Source: Phycisphaerales bacterium (lineage in GTDB: Bacteria > Planctomycetota > Phycisphaerae > Phycisphaerales > UBA1924). From it: 64,000 nt of DNA. Both the position numbers and the translations under genes were made by a program. Numbering within the stretch: position 1 is the first letter of the stretch; each line of letters starts with the position of its first letter. Where the stretch lies: assembly GCA_020847535.1 (NCBI GenBank), contig JADLBU010000003.1:29998-93997 (forward strand), written 5' to 3'. Under the pieces are notes generated by a model. The model ran no database searches. It had not been told where the DNA came from and saw only the letters and a list, made by a program, of their open reading frames with translations. Positions 29,808 to 54,905 of this stretch are shown piece by piece.

Positions 29808-31049
29808 ATGTTGCCAGTCGGGGGGCCCGCCAAGGCGGCCCGGTTTGGGAAGGGAGTGCTTGAGAGCCTGCGTGACATGAAGACCGCCAGACCCATTCTT
29901 ACGCGGATGTCGGCCCGGCAGCGGGATGAGCATCTCAAGGCCGCCGCCAAGTCGTTGCGCGATGGGCACTTGGTGGTGTTGCCGACCGAGACGGTGTACG
30001 GGGTGGCGGCGAGCGCTGCATCGACGGCGGCCCTGGATGCGATGGAGGCGTTGATCGAGGCGGGTGAGCAGCAGACGGGCCTTCCGACGCCGGCGTTGAC
30101 GGGTCACACGCTGCACGCGGCGGATACGGATGACCTGGAGGCCCGGCTGGCGATCTCGCACCCGATTCACAGGCGGCTTTTTGCGCGGCTGGCGCCGGGT
30201 CCGGTGCGGTTTGCGATCGAGAAGTCGGCCGAGGACATCGCGCGGATAGTTTCAGGCCTGGGAGCCCTTCCGGGCGTCGTGGACGATGGTCGGACGCTGT
30301 ACGTGCGTGTTCCAAACCACTCGGCGACCCAAGAAGTGCTCAAGTCCGTCGGCGTGCCGATTGTGCTGCGGCGGCTGTCGCTGTTCGGGTGGGGATCCGG
30401 CAAAGATATCGGGCTGCTCTCGGAGGAGGGTGTTGCCGAGCGAGCGGGGATTTCGATGGTGGTTGATGACGGAGCGACGGCGACCGGGAAGCACTCGACG
30501 ACCGTTTATCTCAAGCCCGCGGGCGGGTTCTCGGTGGATCCGGGGGGGATGTTGACGGAGGCTGAAATCACACGGCAGGTGGAGCGAAACGTGCTGTTTG
30601 TATGCACGGGCAACACCTGCCGGAGCCCGATGGCTGAAGGGATAGCGCAGTCGGTGCTCGCGGAAGTTCCAGCGCTGGCGGTGACGACGCGGGTGCATTC
30701 GGCGGGCATTTCGGCGGGCGCTTCACAGGCCGCCACTCCCGAGGCGGTGCAGGCGCTCTCCGAGGCGGGTGTGCGCGGCTCGGCGGGGCAGGGCCCGCTG
30801 GCGGGCTTCCGATCCCGGCAACTGACGAGGACGATGGTGGAACAGGCGGATGTGATCTACGCGATGACGCGGGGTCACGCTCAGACTGTGATCGCCAAGT
30901 ATCCGTTCGCTGCGGATCGCGTGGTGCTCCTGGATCCGGCGGGGATGGATGTGCTGGATCCGATCGGCGGATCGATGGATCTGTACCGTCAGACGGCCAG
31001 GCGGCTGGGTGAGTTGATTCGTCGCCGCCTGGCGGAATTGGACCGCTAG
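29808..31049 (+). CDS. Fusion protein: L-threonylcarbamoyladenylate synthase (TsaC/YwlC, YrdC domain) + low-molecular-weight protein phosphatase (YwlE-like)
   Basis: N-terminal part DGHLVVLPTETVYGVAA (YrdC signature). From about nt 30588, NVLFVCTGNTCRSPMAEG (C-X5-R(S/T) P-loop) and ..DPIG. The start may be ATG 29877. Confidence 0.85.
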   Translation: MLPVGGPAKAARFGKGVLESLRDMKTARPILTRMSARQRDEHLKAAAKSLRDGHLVVLPTETVYGVAASAASTAALDAMEALIEAGEQQTGLPTPALTGHTLHAADTDDLEARLAISHPIHRRLFARLAPGPVRFAIEKSAEDIARIVSGLGALPGVVDDGRTLYVRVPNHSATQEVLKSVGVPIVLRRLSLFGWGSGKDIGLLSEEGVAERAGISMVVDDGATATGKHSTTVYLKPAGGFSVDPGGMLTEAEITRQVERNVLFVCTGNTCRSPMAEGIAQSVLAEVPALAVTTRVHSAGISAGASQAATPEAVQALSEAGVRGSAGQGPLAGFRSRQLTRTMVEQADVIYAMTRGHAQTVIAKYPFAADRVVLLDPAGMDVLDPIGGSMDLYRQTARRLGELIRRRLAELDR

Positions 31050-31144
31050 GGTCATCCCAGGCGCTCTTCCAAAAGCGGGTGCGGGATTGCTAGAGTTGAC
31101 CGATGGCACACCGGGCAGGCCGGTGCGCTGCGGAGGCCTTGAGC

Positions 31145-31609
31145 ATGCGGATTGCCTTGGGAGCGGATCATCGCGGCTCGTCATCCATCCGCCAGGTGGC
31201 GGACATGCTGGCTCGTGATGGACACCAGGTCGAGATCCTGGGGGACCAGAGCGGGCAGCCGTGCGACTATCCGGAGCCGGCGTTCGCGGTGGGCAAGGCG
31301 ATCTCGGAGAAGCGTGCGGACCTGGGTGTCCTGCTGTGCGGCACGGGCATCGGGATGAGCATCGCTGCGAATAAGGTCAAGGGTGTTCGCGCGGCGGTGG
31401 CGCATGACGAGCTGACTGCCCAGCTTTCGCGCAGCCATAACGACTCGAACGTGCTGTGCCTGTCGGCGGACCTGCTCGGCCAGCGGCTGATCGAGAAGAT
31501 TGTCTCGACGTGGCTGGGGACGGAATTCAGCGGTGGGCGGCACGCCCGGCGGATTCATAAGATCATGGCGATCGAGCAGGGGAAGGATCCGGCGAGCGTT
31601 CAGGAATGA
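31145..31609 (+). CDS. rpiB: Ribose-5-phosphate isomerase B
   Basis: ORF 31103..31609 trimmed to MRIALGADHRGSS..LLCGTGIGMSIAANKVKGVRAA..HNDSNVLCL..GGRHARRI; canonical RpiB/LacAB blocks. Confidence 0.9.
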   Translation: MRIALGADHRGSSSIRQVADMLARDGHQVEILGDQSGQPCDYPEPAFAVGKAISEKRADLGVLLCGTGIGMSIAANKVKGVRAAVAHDELTAQLSRSHNDSNVLCLSADLLGQRLIEKIVSTWLGTEFSGGRHARRIHKIMAIEQGKDPASVQE

Positions 31610-31656
31610 GCAACCGGCCTGGTGTCGGGAACAATTGGCGGGATGCGGGCGTTATC

Positions 31657-31685
31657 TTGACTTTGGGTGGGGGGTATCGCACAAT
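31657..31685 (+). promoter_or_regulatory. Candidate sigma-70-type promoter for the rho leader
   Basis: TTGACT (31657-31662), 17-nt spacer, CACAAT (31680-31685). Lies in the gap after rpiB, about 700 nt upstream of the rho start. Confidence 0.3.
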
Positions 31686-32388
31686 GTGTCGATGAAGCCG
31701 TGAGCGGCGTTCTGCCCGGAGCTGGATTTCGAAGCTCCGCCGCCCTGAGAGAGGGGCTTCTTCCTGACAAGATCTCGCGGGTGGGTCTGCGAAAGACCTC
31801 TTTGCCGTCCGGAGCTTGTCACGAGTGGGCGTCGTGAGCGGGGGACTGTCTTGATCGGGCGCGTGCGATGGGCGCCGTTGGGTATTGCCGCGAGCGTGGT
31901 GTGGTGCGCCGAGGGCGCTTTTCCCAATCACCTGTGGCGAAGGCCCACGACAAAGATCGATTCCGGGCCGGGTTGTGACCGGCCGTGTGTTTGGAAGGGG
32001 TTGGCAGGAAGGAATCGGGTTGAGTGCTTCCCGCGATCGCGGGGCTCACATCATGCGGGGATCTGATCGCGGCGTGGGCTTGTGCCCGGCTGAGATGGCA
32101 AGTCGGCAGCGCCCGGATGAGGGAGGCTGTCGTGGATCCCGAGAGGTTTTGGCGGTGAAAGCGGGTTGACCGGGCGCTTGCAGCGCTGCCGGCCTCATGC
32201 TCATCACGGGCCGCATGTTCGGATTGATCGCGCCCGTTCCACGTAAGGAACCGGTGACGCTTGGCCGCGATGGATCCCTTTCGACGGGATCCCGCTCGCG
32301 GGGACTGATTGCGCTTGGGAGCTTGTCCAGCCGCGGCGGGTGAACCGTCCGCGCGAGCGCTGTCTCAAATGCGGAGGCATGGCTGAAA

Positions 32389-33762
32389 GTGGGACCACGG
32401 CGTTCACGACGGGGCGGACGGAACCAGGGAAGCAACTCTGGCGGCCAGTATTACCACGGCCCGAGAGCGGGCGGTGGTGGTGGTGGAGGTGGGGGTAGCG
32501 GTGGAAGTGGTGGCGGTGGTGGGGGTGGAGGCGGCGGCCGCGGTCATCGCGGTGGGTATGGAGGTGGGGGTGGAGGCGGTAGTGGAGGTGGTGGTGGCGG
32601 AGGTGGGGGAGGTGGGGGGCGATACAGGTCGAATGGGCAGCCTGGCGGGCATCGCCGGGGCGGTCCGTTCCGCAGCGGGGGATATGGTGGGGGCGGCGGG
32701 CATGGCGGAGGTCGTGGCGGGGACAGGGGCGGCGGATACGGTGGGCCGTTGCGGATCACCGAGCTCGAATCGCTGTCTTTGGATGGCCTGGCGCCGATCA
32801 AGCCGTTCGAGGAATTGACGAGCATCGATCCACAGCCACGGCTGACGCTCGAGTACCCGGGGTGCCCGGCCTCGTGCCGGCTGATCGATCTGTTCTGCCC
32901 GATCGGACGCGGCCAGCGCGGGTTGATCGTGAGCCCGCCCAAGGCGGGCAAGACGACGCTGCTCAAGGACATCGCCGGGTCGATCCTTCGGAATCACCCG
33001 GAGATGGAGGTCGTCGTCCTGCTGGTGGATGAGCGGCCCGAAGAGGTGACGGATTTCCGCAGGACGTTCGCGCCCAGGCCGGCGCGGGCGATGGCGGCGG
33101 GAGAGTCAGCGCTCAACGCGTTGCTCGAGGCCGCGGTCGATCCGGTGCAGCAGATGCCGTTCAACCCGGCGCGCGTACGGGTGATCGCCAGCAGCAACGA
33201 CCACGATGTCGACACCCACGTGCAGGTGGCGATGCAGACGATCGAGCGCTGCAAGCGGCTGGTCGAGTGCGGCAGGCACATCGTCGTGGTCCTGGATTCG
33301 CTGACGCGATTGGGGAGGGCGTTCAACAACAGCCGCAGGTTCGCCAGCAGCGGCAGGACTATGACGGGCGGGCTTGATTCGCGGGCGCTGGAGATTCCCA
33401 AGCAGCTCTTCGGGAGCGCTCGCAACACCGAGGAGGCGGGCTCCTTGACGATCATCGCCTCGTGCCTTGTCGATACCGGCAGCGCGGGGGACCAGGTGAT
33501 TTTCGAGGAGTTCAAGGGGACGGGGAACATGGAGCTGATTTTGGATCGGAAGATCAGCGATCAGCGGCTGTTCCCGGCGATCAACCTGGCGGCGAGCGGG
33601 ACGCGGAAAGAGAACCTCTTGATGAGCGATGCGGAGCTGAAGACGATGACAGCGCTGCGCCGGCGGCTGATGACAATGCATCCGCCGCAGCAGGTGGAGC
33701 AGCTCTTGGCGGCGCTAAAGAGGTTTCCGACGAACGCGGCGCTGGTAGGGAGTGTGGGGTAG
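32389..33762 (+). CDS. rho: Transcription termination factor Rho, atypical: Gly/Arg/Tyr-rich N-terminus in place of the OB-fold RNA-binding domain
   Basis: 457 aa, GTG start (GGAGG 11 nt upstream). The C-terminal about 335 aa is collinear with the E. coli Rho ATPase domain: CPIGRGQRGLIVSPPKAGKTTLL, VVLLVDERPEEVT, VVLDSLTRLGRAFN, GSLTIIASCLVDTGS..DQVIFEEFKGTGNMEL.L.R, FPAINLAASGTRKE. The first about 120 aa are (G)n/RGG/YGG only. Confidence 0.85.
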   Translation: MGPRRSRRGGRNQGSNSGGQYYHGPRAGGGGGGGGGSGGSGGGGGGGGGGRGHRGGYGGGGGGGSGGGGGGGGGGGGRYRSNGQPGGHRRGGPFRSGGYGGGGGHGGGRGGDRGGGYGGPLRITELESLSLDGLAPIKPFEELTSIDPQPRLTLEYPGCPASCRLIDLFCPIGRGQRGLIVSPPKAGKTTLLKDIAGSILRNHPEMEVVVLLVDERPEEVTDFRRTFAPRPARAMAAGESALNALLEAAVDPVQQMPFNPARVRVIASSNDHDVDTHVQVAMQTIERCKRLVECGRHIVVVLDSLTRLGRAFNNSRRFASSGRTMTGGLDSRALEIPKQLFGSARNTEEAGSLTIIASCLVDTGSAGDQVIFEEFKGTGNMELILDRKISDQRLFPAINLAASGTRKENLLMSDAELKTMTALRRRLMTMHPPQQVEQLLAALKRFPTNAALVGSVG

Positions 33763-33767
33763 GGTGA

Positions 33768-33809
33768 GGCCAAAGGGCAAATGGCAAAGGGCAAACAGGA
33801 CGGGGCAAG
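33768..33809 (+). repeat. 6 x 7-nt array (N)GGCAAA after the rho stop
   Basis: ggccaaa gggcaaa tggcaaa gggcaaa caggacg gggcaag; fills the gap between the rho TAG (33760-62) and GTG 33810. Confidence 0.85.
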
Positions 33810-34049
33810 GTGCGGAGTGTCGTTCAGGCGTTGAAAGAGGCATTTGCTCCTGAGCCCTTTGTTCCGTTCACGCTCAAGCTGGCGAGCGGGCAGGATGCTC
33901 ATTTCCCGCATTCTGAGGCGCTATTGGTTCCGCCTCATCTCCGCTCGGTCGCGTTGTGGGAGGATGGGGGCTTTCGTGCGATCGACCTTCTGTTGGTTGA
34001 GGAGCTTCGGCTCGGCCGGGAGCGCAAGCCGCAGCGGCGAGCGGGGTGA
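33810..34049 (+). CDS. Hypothetical small protein (79 aa)
   Basis: GTG start. Non-repetitive, balanced composition (VQALKEAFAPEPFVPFTLKLASGQDAHFPHSEALLVPPHLRSVALWEDGGFRAIDLLLVEEL). No recognisable family. Confidence 0.35.
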   Translation: MRSVVQALKEAFAPEPFVPFTLKLASGQDAHFPHSEALLVPPHLRSVALWEDGGFRAIDLLLVEELRLGRERKPQRRAG

Positions 34050-34287
34050 GGGCGGGGCGCCGTCGCAAGGCACGGGTGAGTGTGGGAATGATCGCCATCG
34101 ATGGGCCGGCACGCCGGGTCAGGTCGTGCATCCTGTAGGGCCTGTGTGTGCAGCGCAGATCCCCTTTTCCGCGCCCTGGGCAAAGTTGGACCTTCGGACG
34201 ACCGATAGCGCCCCATAGGGAAAGCTGCACCTTCCAGGCAGCCCGAGTTGCTCGCCTGCGCTGGAGGTTGTGCCGGGAGGCTGATTC

Positions 34288-34707
34288 ATGTCCGGGACCG
34301 CGACCCTTTCGACCGCCGACACCAACCCGATCAATCGCCGCCAGCACGAGCGCTTCACGGTGAGCCCGATGTACTGCCCGGTCTCGCTGCGGCCCATCAC
34401 CGAGGACCGGTTCAGCTACGAGGGCCACGCCTACGACGTCAGCGAGGGCGGGGTGATGTTCGAGATGGACCAGGGTTTCGAGCCGGGCACGGGTGTGGCG
34501 CTGCAGATCACGCTGCCGGGGGATCACCCCCACGAGCTGGATTCGGATCGCAGCATCTACGTCATGGGGAACGTGATCTGGATGGATGATTCGGAGCCGG
34601 GCCCCGTGCGGATGGCGATCGCGTTCACGCGGTTCGCAAGGTTCGGGGACCGGGAGCGCCTGCTCCGGGGTCTGAGCCGCGGGACGTTGATGCGGCGAGC
34701 GGCTTGA
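34288..34707 (+). CDS. PilZ domain protein (putative c-di-GMP receptor)
   Basis: 139 aa. RRQHERF (RxxxR) followed by DVSEGGVMF (D-x-S-x-x-G). GGGAGG lies 8 nt upstream of the ATG. Confidence 0.75.
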   Translation: MSGTATLSTADTNPINRRQHERFTVSPMYCPVSLRPITEDRFSYEGHAYDVSEGGVMFEMDQGFEPGTGVALQITLPGDHPHELDSDRSIYVMGNVIWMDDSEPGPVRMAIAFTRFARFGDRERLLRGLSRGTLMRRAA

Positions 34708-34822: not shown

Positions 34823-35878
34823 GTGTTCGTAGACCAAGCAATCATCACGGTCCGCGCCGGCACCGGCGGGGGTGGTCGGGTTTCGTTCCGCCGCGAAAAG
34901 GGGGAGCCCAAGGGCGGCCCCAACGGCGGGGATGGCGGCAAGGGCGCCGATGTCGTCCTCCAGGCGGAAGATGGCATGCACACGCTGTATGACTTCCGCG
35001 GGGTGCCGCTGGTGGAAGCCCCGCACGGGGAGGATGGCGGCAAGAAGCAGTGCCACGGCGGGGATGCACCTGACATGGTGATCAAGCTTCCCGCCGGGAC
35101 GCTTATCTACAACGATGAGACCGGGGAGCTGATGGCGGACCTGAAGCCATCGGACCGCATCGTGATTGCCAAGGGCGGCAAGGGCGGTTGGGGCAACGAG
35201 CACTTCAAATCATCGACCAACCAGACGCCGCGGAGGGCGACCCCGGGGGCTGAGGGTGAGAGCTTTCGGCTGCGCTTTGAATTGAAGCTGATCGCCGATG
35301 TCGGGTTCGTCGGCCTGCCCAACGCGGGCAAGAGCACGCTGCTCGCCGCGCTGACGCGAGCAACGCCCAAGATCGCCGATTACCCGTTCACGACGCTGTC
35401 GCCGCAGCTTGGGATCTGCGAGCTCGATGCGATGCGACGAATCGTGATGGCGGACATCCCGGGGCTGATCGAGGGCGCTTCCAAGGGCGCGGGGCTTGGG
35501 CTGGATTTCCTGCGGCACATCGAGCGGACGCGCGTCTTGGTGCACCTGCTCGATGCCCAGCCGCCGGATGGATCGACGCCGGCGGAGAACTACCGCACGG
35601 TGCGACACGAGCTGACGCAGCACTCCGAGGAGCTTGGGAACAAGCCCGAGCTGATCGTGCTGAACAAGGTGGATCTGCTCGATCCGGATGAGGCGGGCAA
35701 GGTCGCCAAGAAGCTGGCGCGGGAGCTGGATGTGGATGCCAAGCAGGGGATGCTGGCGATCTCGGGGGCTGCGCACACGGGGCTCAAGCCGCTGCTGGAG
35801 CGGTTGTGGGTGATGCTGCATCCCAAGGGTGGGGGGGTGGAGAATTGGAAGGCGGTTGGTGGGGCGGCGGAGACGTGA
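34823..35878 (+). CDS. obg: GTPase Obg/CgtA
   Basis: 351 aa. MFVDQAIITVRAGTGGGGRVSFRREKGEPKGGPNGGDGGKGADVV (Obg fold), GLPNAGKSTLL (G1), DIPGLIEGA (G3), NKVD (G4). Confidence 0.95.
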   Translation: MFVDQAIITVRAGTGGGGRVSFRREKGEPKGGPNGGDGGKGADVVLQAEDGMHTLYDFRGVPLVEAPHGEDGGKKQCHGGDAPDMVIKLPAGTLIYNDETGELMADLKPSDRIVIAKGGKGGWGNEHFKSSTNQTPRRATPGAEGESFRLRFELKLIADVGFVGLPNAGKSTLLAALTRATPKIADYPFTTLSPQLGICELDAMRRIVMADIPGLIEGASKGAGLGLDFLRHIERTRVLVHLLDAQPPDGSTPAENYRTVRHELTQHSEELGNKPELIVLNKVDLLDPDEAGKVAKKLARELDVDAKQGMLAISGAAHTGLKPLLERLWVMLHPKGGGVENWKAVGGAAET

Positions 35879-53415: not shown

Positions 53416-54905
53416 GCGCGGCGACCCACGAAGCTTCGATGGTCCCGGTTATCCCGCTGCTCGCGGGCGCGCGGGAGGTCCTGCGTGGCTTCCAGCCGTT
53501 GCGGGCGGCCGGGGTCGTCACGGCCCTGCGCGGCCTGACGGTCCTGGTCGATGAGCTGCCCGTGCCCGCAGGCTCGCTGGTGTCGATCCGCGCCCGGGGA
53601 GGTCATCCGCACGCGGCCCCGAAAGTCCTCGGCGAGGTCATCGGCTTCACGCGCGAGCACTCGGTTGTGATGACGCTGGGAGACACCGCGGGCATTCGAC
53701 CCGGCGATGAGGTCGTCGGGGAGCAGATCACCCAGACCGCACTGGTGGGCGAGAGCATGCTGGGCCGCTGCATCGATGGCCTCTGCCGGCCGATCGATGG
53801 CGCTGGCCCCATCCACGGACGCATCCCGCTCCAGCTCACCCCGCCGCCCATCGGCTCCCTGAGCCGTCGGCGGATCGTTGAGCCCATGTACACCGGCGTG
53901 CGGGCGATCGACCTGTTCACCACGCTGGGCGGCGGCCAGCGCATGGGCATCTTCGCGGGCCCCGGCGTCGGCAAGAGCACGCTCTTGGGAACGATCGCGG
54001 CGCGGTCGGATGCCGATGTCAACGTGATCGCCCTCATCGGTGAGCGAGGCCGGGAGGTCAAGGATTTCATCGAGCACAGCCTCGGACCCGCGGGCCTGGG
54101 CCGTTCGGTCGTCTTTGTCGCGACCGGGGATGAGTCCCCGCTGATGCGGATCCGCGCTGCCAAAGCGGCCTGCACGCAGGCCGAGTACTTCCGTGCCCGC
54201 GGCAAGCGCGTCATGCTGATGATGGATTCGATCACGCGCTTCGCCCACGCCCAGCGCCAGATCGGCCTGTCGGTCGGAGAGCCCCCGGCGACCAAGGGAT
54301 ACACACCCAGCGTATTCGCGCAGATGGCGCTGCTCTTGGAGAGGGCGGGGGCGATCGAGGGGGGCGCTAGAGACGAAGAGACAAAGAGACAGAGAGACGA
54401 AGCGGCGACTTCTTCCACTCCGTCTCTTCGGGACTCCGTCTCTGCATCTCTTTCCGGCTCCATCACCGGCCTCTACACCATCCTCGTCGAGGGTGATGAC
54501 ATGACCGAGCCGGTCGCGGATGCAGCTCGCGGCATCCTGGATGGTCATCTGATTCTCTCGAGGGCGCTCGCGCAGAAGGCGCATTTCCCGGCGATCGATG
54601 TCCTCGACTCGGTCAGCCGGGTCGCCGACGATGTCTGCGAATCCAAGCACATGGATGCCCGCCGCCAGGTCGTGCGGTTGCTCGCCCTCTACAAGGAAGT
54701 CGAGGACCTGGTCCAGATCGGGGCCTACGCCCGCGGCGCCAAGCCCGAGACCGACATCGCGATCGATCTGCACGATGACATCATCCGCGTGCTGCGCCAG
54801 GGCAAGGCCGATGCGACACCCTTCGACCAGGCGCGGGAATCACTCATCAAGATCGCCCAGCGGTCCGTCGAGCTGCTCGGCAAGGGCGCCAAGGGCCGCA
54901 GGTAA
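53412..54905 (+). CDS. fliI: Flagellum-specific ATPase FliI, with about 29-codon repeat-derived insertion
   Basis: 497 aa. GQRMGIFAGPGVGKSTLLG Walker A, VMLMMDSITRFA Walker B, GSITGLYTILVEGDDMTEPVADAARGILDGHLILSRALA. Extra segment ARDEETKRQRDEAATSSTPSLRDSVSASLS before GSIT. Confidence 0.92.
   Translation: MSAATHEASMVPVIPLLAGAREVLRGFQPLRAAGVVTALRGLTVLVDELPVPAGSLVSIRARGGHPHAAPKVLGEVIGFTREHSVVMTLGDTAGIRPGDEVVGEQITQTALVGESMLGRCIDGLCRPIDGAGPIHGRIPLQLTPPPIGSLSRRRIVEPMYTGVRAIDLFTTLGGGQRMGIFAGPGVGKSTLLGTIAARSDADVNVIALIGERGREVKDFIEHSLGPAGLGRSVVFVATGDESPLMRIRAAKAACTQAEYFRARGKRVMLMMDSITRFAHAQRQIGLSVGEPPATKGYTPSVFAQMALLLERAGAIEGGARDEETKRQRDEAATSSTPSLRDSVSASLSGSITGLYTILVEGDDMTEPVADAARGILDGHLILSRALAQKAHFPAIDVLDSVSRVADDVCESKHMDARRQVVRLLALYKEVEDLVQIGAYARGAKPETDIAIDLHDDIIRVLRQGKADATPFDQARESLIKIAQRSVELLGKGAKGRR
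54369..54455. repeat. AGAC(R)(R)AG word-hairpin element embedded in frame in fliI
   Basis: Left arm agagacgaagagacaaagagacagagagacgaag (54369-54402, 8-nt period); right arm cttccactccgtctcttcgggactccgtctctgcatctctttcc (54412-54455) is its imperfect reverse complement. Confidence 0.8.

Follow-up and report, generated by a model that had tools for sequence, protein, structure and literature searches.

How can a Rho ring take hold of RNA when its folded primary binding site is missing? This question is raised by a gene in a stretch of 64,000 nucleotides from a Phycisphaerales bacterium (contig JADLBU010000003.1, positions 29,998 to 93,997 of the forward strand), which is called the window here. 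The OB-fold primary site of Rho is regarded as selecting Rho utilisation (rut) sites and as positioning the RNA for ring closure. An earlier note on the window, made from its letters alone, had described the gene product as a Rho homolog in which a glycine-rich stretch stands in place of this fold, and had proposed a new mode of substrate recognition for the organism's Rho. We confirmed the architecture and arrived at a different explanation. The gene is probably a functional second Rho paralog, here named Rho2, which is characteristic of Phycisphaerales and in which the OB fold was replaced by a cationic disordered tail. Rho2 is not a new substrate-recognition mode of the primary Rho. What is new is a Rho paralog spread across a whole order, whose passage from an OB fold plus disordered loop to a disordered tail only can be followed in its members. 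The gene and its N-terminal parts are located in the window as follows.

32389 to 33762, forward strand: Rho paralog gene Rho2, OB-less form, GTG start, 457 amino acids (aa)
32389 to 32739, forward strand: intrinsically disordered Gly/Arg/Ser/Tyr/His-rich region, residues 1-117, assigned by composition and a predicted local distance difference test (pLDDT) value below 50
32389 to 32424, forward strand: conserved basic motif M/V-G-P-R-R-S-R-R-G-G-R-N, kept in the orthologous loci L001, L004 and L005
32740 to 32868, forward strand: remnant of the last OB strand (PLRITEL) and linker to the ATPase domain, residues 118-160, assigned by alignment

The start codon is preceded by a GGAGG at 32373-32377, 11 nt upstream, and an in-frame stop lies immediately 5' of the open reading frame (ORF). 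In the 457-aa protein Pfam detected PF00006 alone (residues 164-403). As expected in the earlier note, neither Rho_N (PF07498) nor Rho_RNA_bind (PF07497) was matched at a cut-off of E<=10. The NCBIfam model PRK09376 (Rho) was passed with 372 bits against a cutoff of 315, and TIGR00767 was not reached (363 bits, cutoff 509). Alignment with solved Rho structures set in at residue 117-123, which corresponds to residue 121 of Thermus Rho, and the BLASTP alignment with E. coli Rho started at residue 140, equivalent to E. coli residue 133. Similar results were obtained with structure prediction. AlphaFold2, run on a 60-sequence alignment, returned a well-folded motor, residues 1-116 with pLDDT <50 and no secondary structure, and no helix before residue 124. 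In a Foldseek comparison of this model with Rho about 322 columns aligned, comprising the motor only. Profile searches and the predicted structure thus bear out the absence of an N-terminal OB fold, and the Gly/Arg region, suggested earlier as an RNA-loading module, is the only candidate for an RNA-contacting element in the N-terminus. Rho homology in the window protein begins at the last OB strand, PLRITEL(ESL...), which matches 'ALLKVNEV...FENLTPLH..' of E. coli Rho and the fifth strand of OB-bearing relatives. This retained strand and its linker had been missed earlier.

An assembly or frameshift artefact could in principle produce the same picture if a sequencing error in the GGN tract had disconnected a true OB-coding segment further upstream. 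GGN repeats are error-prone, and the spacer of about 780 nt ahead of the ORF contains no convincing gene. However, neither the OB-like segment of the relatives nor an E. coli-like N-terminal domain is encoded in any of the six frames across the 64 kb, in agreement with what had been noted for the upstream frames, and no ORF in any frame of the region upstream of rho2 (31686-32388) has Rho-related content. The same negative result was obtained for an OB-like or Rho N-terminal segment in all six frames at the loci L001-L003. Moreover, the architecture is common to four independent assemblies, and the OB-less form was found in 23 species (see below). We therefore regard this explanation as scarcely credible.

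The tail itself has the composition that had been described. Residues 1-120 comprise 72 Gly (60%), 15 Arg (12%), 8 Ser, 6 Tyr, 4 His, 1 Asp and neither Glu nor Lys, with 5 RGG, 3 YGG and 10 RG/GR motifs in what is a Gly-rich disordered segment with a net charge of about +14. The GGN periodicity of its DNA was also recovered: G occupies 62% of first and 77% of second codon positions, and the third position is mixed. Among the Gly codons GGT accounts for 35%, GGA for 19% and GGG for 19%, compared with 14% GGT and 47% GGG in neighbouring genes. The longest G run between 32389 and 32748 is 6, and a canonical quadruplex motif of four G3+ runs was absent from the GGN tract. This avoidance of GGG codons is in keeping with a Gly tract that is translated and kept clear of long runs of G, and suggests selection against long G homopolymers. 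The GGN repeats are imperfect, with a 42-nt unit present 2.6 times at 32469-32579, which suggests that the tail expanded by slippage or duplication.

For comparison we used the orthologs at L001 (a 4.63-Mb JGI contig, Ga0573894_009) and at L004 and L005 (metagenome-assembled genomes), all from independent assemblies, whose cores are 90-93% identical to that of the window protein. The GTG start is common to all four, as are a purine-rich Shine-Dalgarno sequence and a motif of the form V-x-(P/Q)-R-R-S-R-R-(R)-G, and the Arg codons of its xRRSRR portion differ synonymously. This portion is the equivalent of a poly-Arg motif in other members of the family. The tails measure 120 aa in the window, 112 in L001, 63 in L004 and 67 in L005, and the differences are whole codons. 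Based on the conserved start, Shine-Dalgarno sequence and motif, the whole-codon differences, the constant Arg number, the codon periodicity and the Gly-codon bias, we conclude from sequence comparison that the tail is translated. The alternative, according to which translation starts at the in-frame TTG or downstream of it, so that 32389-32748 is a 5' untranslated region and the product a bare ATPase, had been raised in the earlier note with a TTG near 32749; this codon is Leu119 at 32743-32745. Gene callers do place internal starts on several homologs (e.g. P0002 and P0001), and G-rich DNA is free of stops in several frames. Given the conserved features listed above, and since OB-bearing relatives carry the equivalent poly-Arg/Gly stretch in the interior of the protein, we consider an untranslated tail highly improbable.

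Which property of the tail is conserved can be read from the same four orthologs. Arg is steady at 13-15 residues, Gly ranges from 20 to 72, and acidic residues number 0-1. The close orthologs have far less Gly than the window protein and no Tyr, at an Arg count equal to that of the window. Accordingly, the alignments indicate that the conserved property is basic charge, i.e. Arg content with few acidic residues, and not an RGG/YGG grammar. RGG/RG-motif regions that bind RNA are known from eukaryotic proteins such as FUS, hnRNP and nucleolin. The window tail resembles these in composition only, being Gly-rich with interspersed Arg and Tyr and nearly without acidic residues. It shares no homology with them, and the likeness is one of convergent composition.

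The features of the motor are the following.

32878 to 33597, forward strand: RecA-type ATPase domain, PF00006, residues 164-403
32935 to 32958, forward strand: Walker A, PPKAGKTT, within the ATPase domain
33067 to 33174, forward strand: family-specific insertion in the ATPase domain, about 36 aa, residues 227-262, seen as an alignment gap against all solved Rho structures
33325 to 33378, forward strand: Q-loop region NNSRRFASSGRTMTGGLD, which compared with canonical Rho carries a basic insertion of 2 residues, assigned by alignment
33469 to 33492, forward strand: R-loop region VDTGSAGD, with Ala in place of the Lys that corresponds to E. coli K326, assigned by alignment

The core shares 47% identity with the C-terminal domain of E. 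coli Rho (133-409), and every motif falls into register, which corroborates the collinearity reported earlier. Besides Walker A, the window protein has DERPEEV with the catalytic Glu/Arg, Walker B LDS and SGTRK with the Arg finger. Walker A and B, DERPEEV, the Q-loop core and SGTRK are invariant across 60 family members. The Q-loop is present as SGR..TGGLD with its 2-aa insertion. In the comparison of the window with its orthologs the ratio of non-synonymous to synonymous substitution rates (dN/dS) of the core was 0.04-0.08, or about 0.05, at a saturating dS of ~1. From these substitution patterns the motor, including the C-terminal region, is judged to be intact and under strong purifying selection. 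The insertion at residues 227-262, likewise overlooked before, follows EEVTDFRRTF and was modelled as three short helices with pLDDT 62-68. Its length varies in the family, where the core measures 277-346 aa and some members are without the insertion altogether.

These data bear on the possibility that the gene is a decaying, non-functional duplicate whose Gly-rich stretch is slippage junk left after the loss of the N-terminal domain. In its favour, the protein has lost the OB fold and has another residue in place of the R-loop Lys, and the tail is unstable in length (63-120 aa among close relatives) with imperfect tandem repeats; moreover, ATPase-only sequences were classed as 'not functional Rho factors' by Moreira et al. 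(PMC11347177). However, low dN/dS and invariant catalytic motifs do not fit decay, the gene was present in 80 of 80 Phycisphaerales species retrieved, and start codon, promoter block and tail Arg content are conserved. Decay is therefore very unlikely. The earlier note had connected a canonical rho elsewhere with a degenerate paralog; a canonical Rho was indeed found at the level of the clade, but 'degenerate' does not describe a core under such constraint.

The distribution of Rho2 was examined with the ATPase part as query, which retrieved more than 120 homologs of 69-93% identity, all with PF00006 only; the named ones all belonged to Phycisphaerae or Phycisphaerales. In a set of 1.84 billion cluster representatives (50% identity) the whole family was reduced to about 9 clusters, after which similarity dropped to 57% or less. 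Rho2 is thus distinct from every other Rho. Scanning a single genome for each GTDB species, we obtained 80 loci, which lie without exception in Phycisphaerales, one per genome. For 78 of these species we inspected the locus at the DNA level: a 54-aa OB-like segment was in frame in 50, no such segment was found in any frame within 2.5 kb in 23, and 5 loci were cut by a contig end. The OB-less architecture is therefore not confined to the window, and most relatives keep a divergent OB fold.

Two kinds of N-terminus were seen. The first reads MTTLTGILEWPQRAEGRVRQ...DDDPFVPL...LEVTVEVG.R, followed by a poly-Arg/Gly/Gln-rich stretch and then RPVVESI. The second, to which the window protein belongs, starts straight at the poly-Arg motif, and in several OB-less genes a 'LEVRVRVGS' remnant is found in an open frame just 5' of this motif. 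AlphaFold modelled residues 1-82 of an OB-bearing member (P0061) as strand-strand-strand-helix-strand, a poly-Arg/Gly loop and a final strand (pLDDT 81-90), and about 401 of 405 columns of this model aligned with Rho in Foldseek. Basal members gave weak Pfam Rho_RNA_bind matches (E ~2e-4) and TIGR00767 alignments from model position 52-53. A profile of the OB-like segment had no Rho match among PDB sequences and returned only lamin noise at E ~0.3. On the strength of the predicted topology, the Foldseek alignment and the weak Pfam and TIGRFAM matches, the segment is identified as a divergent Rho OB fold without the GFGF motif; an equivalent of Tyr110 is also missing, and the loop ahead of its last strand is a disordered Arg/Gly region. 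The earlier statement that Gly/Arg insertions are added to the OB fold and do not replace it holds for the ancestral Rho2, in which the loop lies inside the OB fold, but not for the window's lineage, which lost the strands ahead of the loop. In a neighbour-joining tree the basal branches were OB-bearing, and OB-less forms appeared in at least three clades including that of the window.

The tails of other OB-less members look different. Some would be much longer: at locus L174 the tail of the OB-less Rho2 would measure about 190 aa, rich in Pro, Ala, Gln, His and Asn, and at L065 the open frame, which exceeds 450 aa, contains Lys/Ala/Pro-rich and then Gln/Asn-rich stretches. Judged by sequence, tail chemistry is strongly lineage-specific among OB-less Rho2 proteins.

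Does Rho2 stand alone in these organisms? A profile for canonical Rho was built from representatives of the type 'initial region + Rho_N + OB + ATPase' among the family's neighbours. All 120 matches listed had PF07497 and PF00006 and nearly all had PF07498, and dozens were named Phycisphaerales, Phycisphaeraceae, Phycisphaerae or Tepidisphaera. The canonical Phycisphaerales Rho keeps DGFGFLRS, DDIYVSPTQ, ERYFALLRV and, unlike the window protein, the R-loop Lys, and it is about 45% identical to the window protein. In two genomes both genes were located on one contig. The 650,812-bp WGNV01000004.1 carries a canonical Rho (P0332) within 69092-76561 and an OB-less Rho2 (L034) within 235291-241253, and a 4,141,776-bp JGI contig carries a canonical Rho (P0435) together with P0007/L174, a Rho2 without an OB segment in any frame. 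Based on these two genomes, we interpret Rho2 as a second paralog that coexists with canonical Rho in Phycisphaerales.

Canonical rho genes of the order share further features. Their products are 416-782 aa long, and P0332 (L084, 3001-4470) as well as other canonical Phycisphaerales Rho proteins have an Arg/Lys/Gly-rich N-terminal extension (MGFGRRKKKRRKGGGMGMGPG...) ahead of Rho_N, so that basic disordered regions decorate both paralogs. The neighbourhood of canonical rho is conserved at L084, L085, L086 and L171, with a gene for a bPH_2-CoaE fusion upstream and, downstream, two genes without a Pfam match, whose products measure about 100 aa and about 840 aa.

The proposal that the window protein is the organism's sole Rho, in which the RGG/YGG region has taken the place of the OB fold and is now the primary site where RNA is loaded for general termination, has to be weighed against this. 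It can point to a motor that is intact and strongly conserved and to the passed PRK09376 model, owing to which annotation pipelines name the protein Rho. In addition, tblastn of the 64-kb window yielded no canonical rho, and canonical rho was tied to none of the closest relatives L001, L004 and L005; eight canonical Rho matches that were looked up came from assemblies other than those of L004 and L005, and among the 600 matches listed from a metagenome scan with the canonical Rho P0329, which came from arbitrary bacteria, the 4.63-Mb contig of L001 did not appear. An exact look-up of the window protein gave no record. These two absences count against the paralog interpretation. On the other hand, canonical Rho is widespread in Phycisphaerales and shares a contig with OB-less Rho2 in two genomes, and Rho2 is a separate family whose identity to any other Rho is at most 57%. 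By analogy with these genomes, the window's own genome presumably encodes a canonical Rho as well. A sole Rho is therefore improbable, and the suggested new recognition mode of the organism's Rho is not upheld.

Second rho genes have been described elsewhere. Moreira et al. (Nucleic Acids Research 2024, PMC11347177) reported two in many genomes of the Planctomycetes-Verrucomicrobia-Chlamydiae (PVC) group, one for a complete Rho of Group A and one for a Rho of Group B, which is without the N-terminal domain. Group B of the PVC group and Actinomycetota, also termed Type 4 or subtype 2d (D'Heygere et al. 2013, as cited in PMC11347177), comprises paralogs whose RNA-binding domain bears small insertions and whose catalytic ATPase residues are conserved. 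The same study described an Arg/Gly/Gln-rich 'RNP3 insertion' and loss of GFGF in Rho of PVC and Actinomycetota (PMC11347177). Like Group B, Rho2 lacks Rho_N and keeps the catalytic residues, and in the two genomes above it is encoded by a second rho gene beside a complete Rho. The OB-bearing relatives fit the Group B description, with their poly-Arg/Gly loop at the position of the 'RNP3 insertion'. Published Group B proteins have a Pfam-detectable RNA-binding domain; the window protein has none and falls outside, and in Rho2 the insertion grows from about 20 aa or less up to 190 aa. No Phycisphaerales genome figures in the data set of Moreira et al., and our literature search found no paper linking Phycisphaerae and Rho.

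A 'Rho-like ATPase domain' class was also listed by Moreira et al., who dismissed its 28 scattered sequences from Pseudomonadota, Lacunisphaera and Ktedonosporobacter as non-functional (PMC11347177, supplementary text). The window protein, which has the Rho ATPase domain alone with conserved essential residues, falls within this class. Unlike the class as described there, Rho2 is order-wide, follows a path from OB plus loop to loop only, is under purifying selection and has a conserved cationic disordered N-terminus. Disordered N-terminal insertion domains have been found in Rho of M. tuberculosis, Micrococcus luteus, Bacteroides thetaiotaomicron, B. fragilis and Clostridium botulinum, and such Arg/Gly/Gln/Asn-rich regions were reported to raise RNA affinity, to shape rut-site choice or to drive phase separation (PMC11347177; PMC13650167). 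In these Rho factors the disordered region supplements the intact OB fold of the main Rho, whereas in the window protein it is all that is left N-terminal of the last OB strand, and this in a paralog. A curated model for a short Rho paralog beginning with the OB domain is NF041509 of NCBIfam (paralog_Rho2, 'transcription termination factor Rho, short form'). The window protein scored 324 bits against its cutoff of 628, and relatives and neighbours scored 344-514 bits, none reaching the cutoff. The window protein is not a member of NF041509.

How, then, might Rho2 have lost its OB fold and still handle RNA? In the explanation we favour, a functional second paralog, the ancestral Rho2 lacked the Rho_N helix bundle and had a divergent OB fold without GFGF, with a disordered poly-Arg/Gly-rich loop ahead of its last strand. 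In this ancestor, whose OB fold also lacked an equivalent of Tyr110, much of the contact with RNA may already have passed to the Arg-rich loop, and the OB fold would thereby have become dispensable. The lineage of the window then lost the first four OB strands, as did at least two further lineages independently, so that translation now starts at the Arg-rich loop, and the poly-Gly tracts expanded later. Non-specific RNA binding is the probable role of the Arg-rich tail, be it in Rho2 alone or in mixed hexamers. With its charge and RG/RGG motifs the tail could capture RNA electrostatically and without sequence specificity, possibly in condensates of the kind reported for Bacteroides Rho, and pass it to the central channel of the ring. 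This ring might be a Rho2 homohexamer, or a mixed one in which canonical Rho supplies OB sites in trans. The role of Rho2 would be that of an auxiliary or specialised RNA translocase or terminator, with canonical Rho serving general termination.

That OB-less Rho2 is an autonomous translocase or terminator, with the cationic disordered tail as its only primary RNA-binding element, and that this arose at least three times in Phycisphaerales, is a tentative idea that we consider less likely than not. Somewhat more doubtful still is a Rho2 that is inactive by itself and works solely in mixed hexamers, with the OB sites given in trans and the tail tuning RNA affinity or phase behaviour. Both genes do occur in the same genomes, hetero-hexamers of Group A and Group B Rho were proposed by Moreira et al. 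(PMC11347177), and repeated OB loss suggests that the OB fold is dispensable. Conversely, the paralogs are only about 45% identical, and the 36-aa insertion as well as Cys-rich family-specific positions in or near the ATPase domain might hinder co-assembly.

To the missing canonical rho in the window and its closest relatives, further points have to be added that weigh against a functional second paralog as we describe it. The R-loop Lys to Ala exchange and the Q-loop insertion may have altered the function of the secondary site. The number of independent OB losses is approximate, as the neighbour-joining tree carries no support values, and orthology of Rho2 to the published Group B of other Planctomycetota is suggested by its tree position among short forms.

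The surroundings of rho2 in the window comprise the following features.

31657 to 31685, forward strand: promoter-like TTGACT-17 nt-CACAAT, about 700 nt 5' of the start codon, with a putative function
31686 to 32388, forward strand: long 5' leader or intergenic region containing the GGAGG, not conserved in sequence and poorly alignable between orthologs
29808 to 31049: Sua5/YrdC-low-molecular-weight phosphatase fusion, upstream of rho2
31103 to 31609: RpiB, upstream of rho2
34288 to 34707: small ORF, PilZ-like by eye (RRxxxR ... DxSxxG), downstream of rho2
34823 to 35878: Obg-type GTPase, downstream of rho2

The promoter-like block was the sole sigma-70-like match in 31500-34300 and the sole block conserved upstream in the window, L001, L004 and L005. 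Its position implies a 5' leader of about 700 nt. A weak terminator-like hairpin lies within the leader at 31966-31984, and Rfam detected no family there or elsewhere in the window. By analogy with rho genes elsewhere one may speculate that this is an attenuation leader under Rho-dependent control. The Sua5/RpiB pair is syntenic in L001-L003, where the downstream genes differ, and a FlgM gene was seen near rho2 in L001. A second RecA-type ATPase at 53898-54713 (forward strand) is 24% identical to the Rho core and not a rho copy; it is probably of the FliI/type III secretion type.

The Rho2 series, in which an OB fold with an Arg/Gly loop gives way to the loop alone while the motor stays constrained, provides a natural test of whether a disordered tail can substitute for a folded primary site. 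The family also bears on the role of second Rho paralogs and on the existence of mixed Rho hexamers. Both paralogs are annotated as 'transcription termination factor Rho', which can mislead surveys of Rho architecture in Planctomycetota. If OB-less Rho2 is autonomous, a Rho ring would load RNA without any folded primary binding site. One bacterium would then have two Rho systems, a canonical one using YC-rich rut sites and a Rho2 system relying on charge- or structure-driven capture or on condensates.

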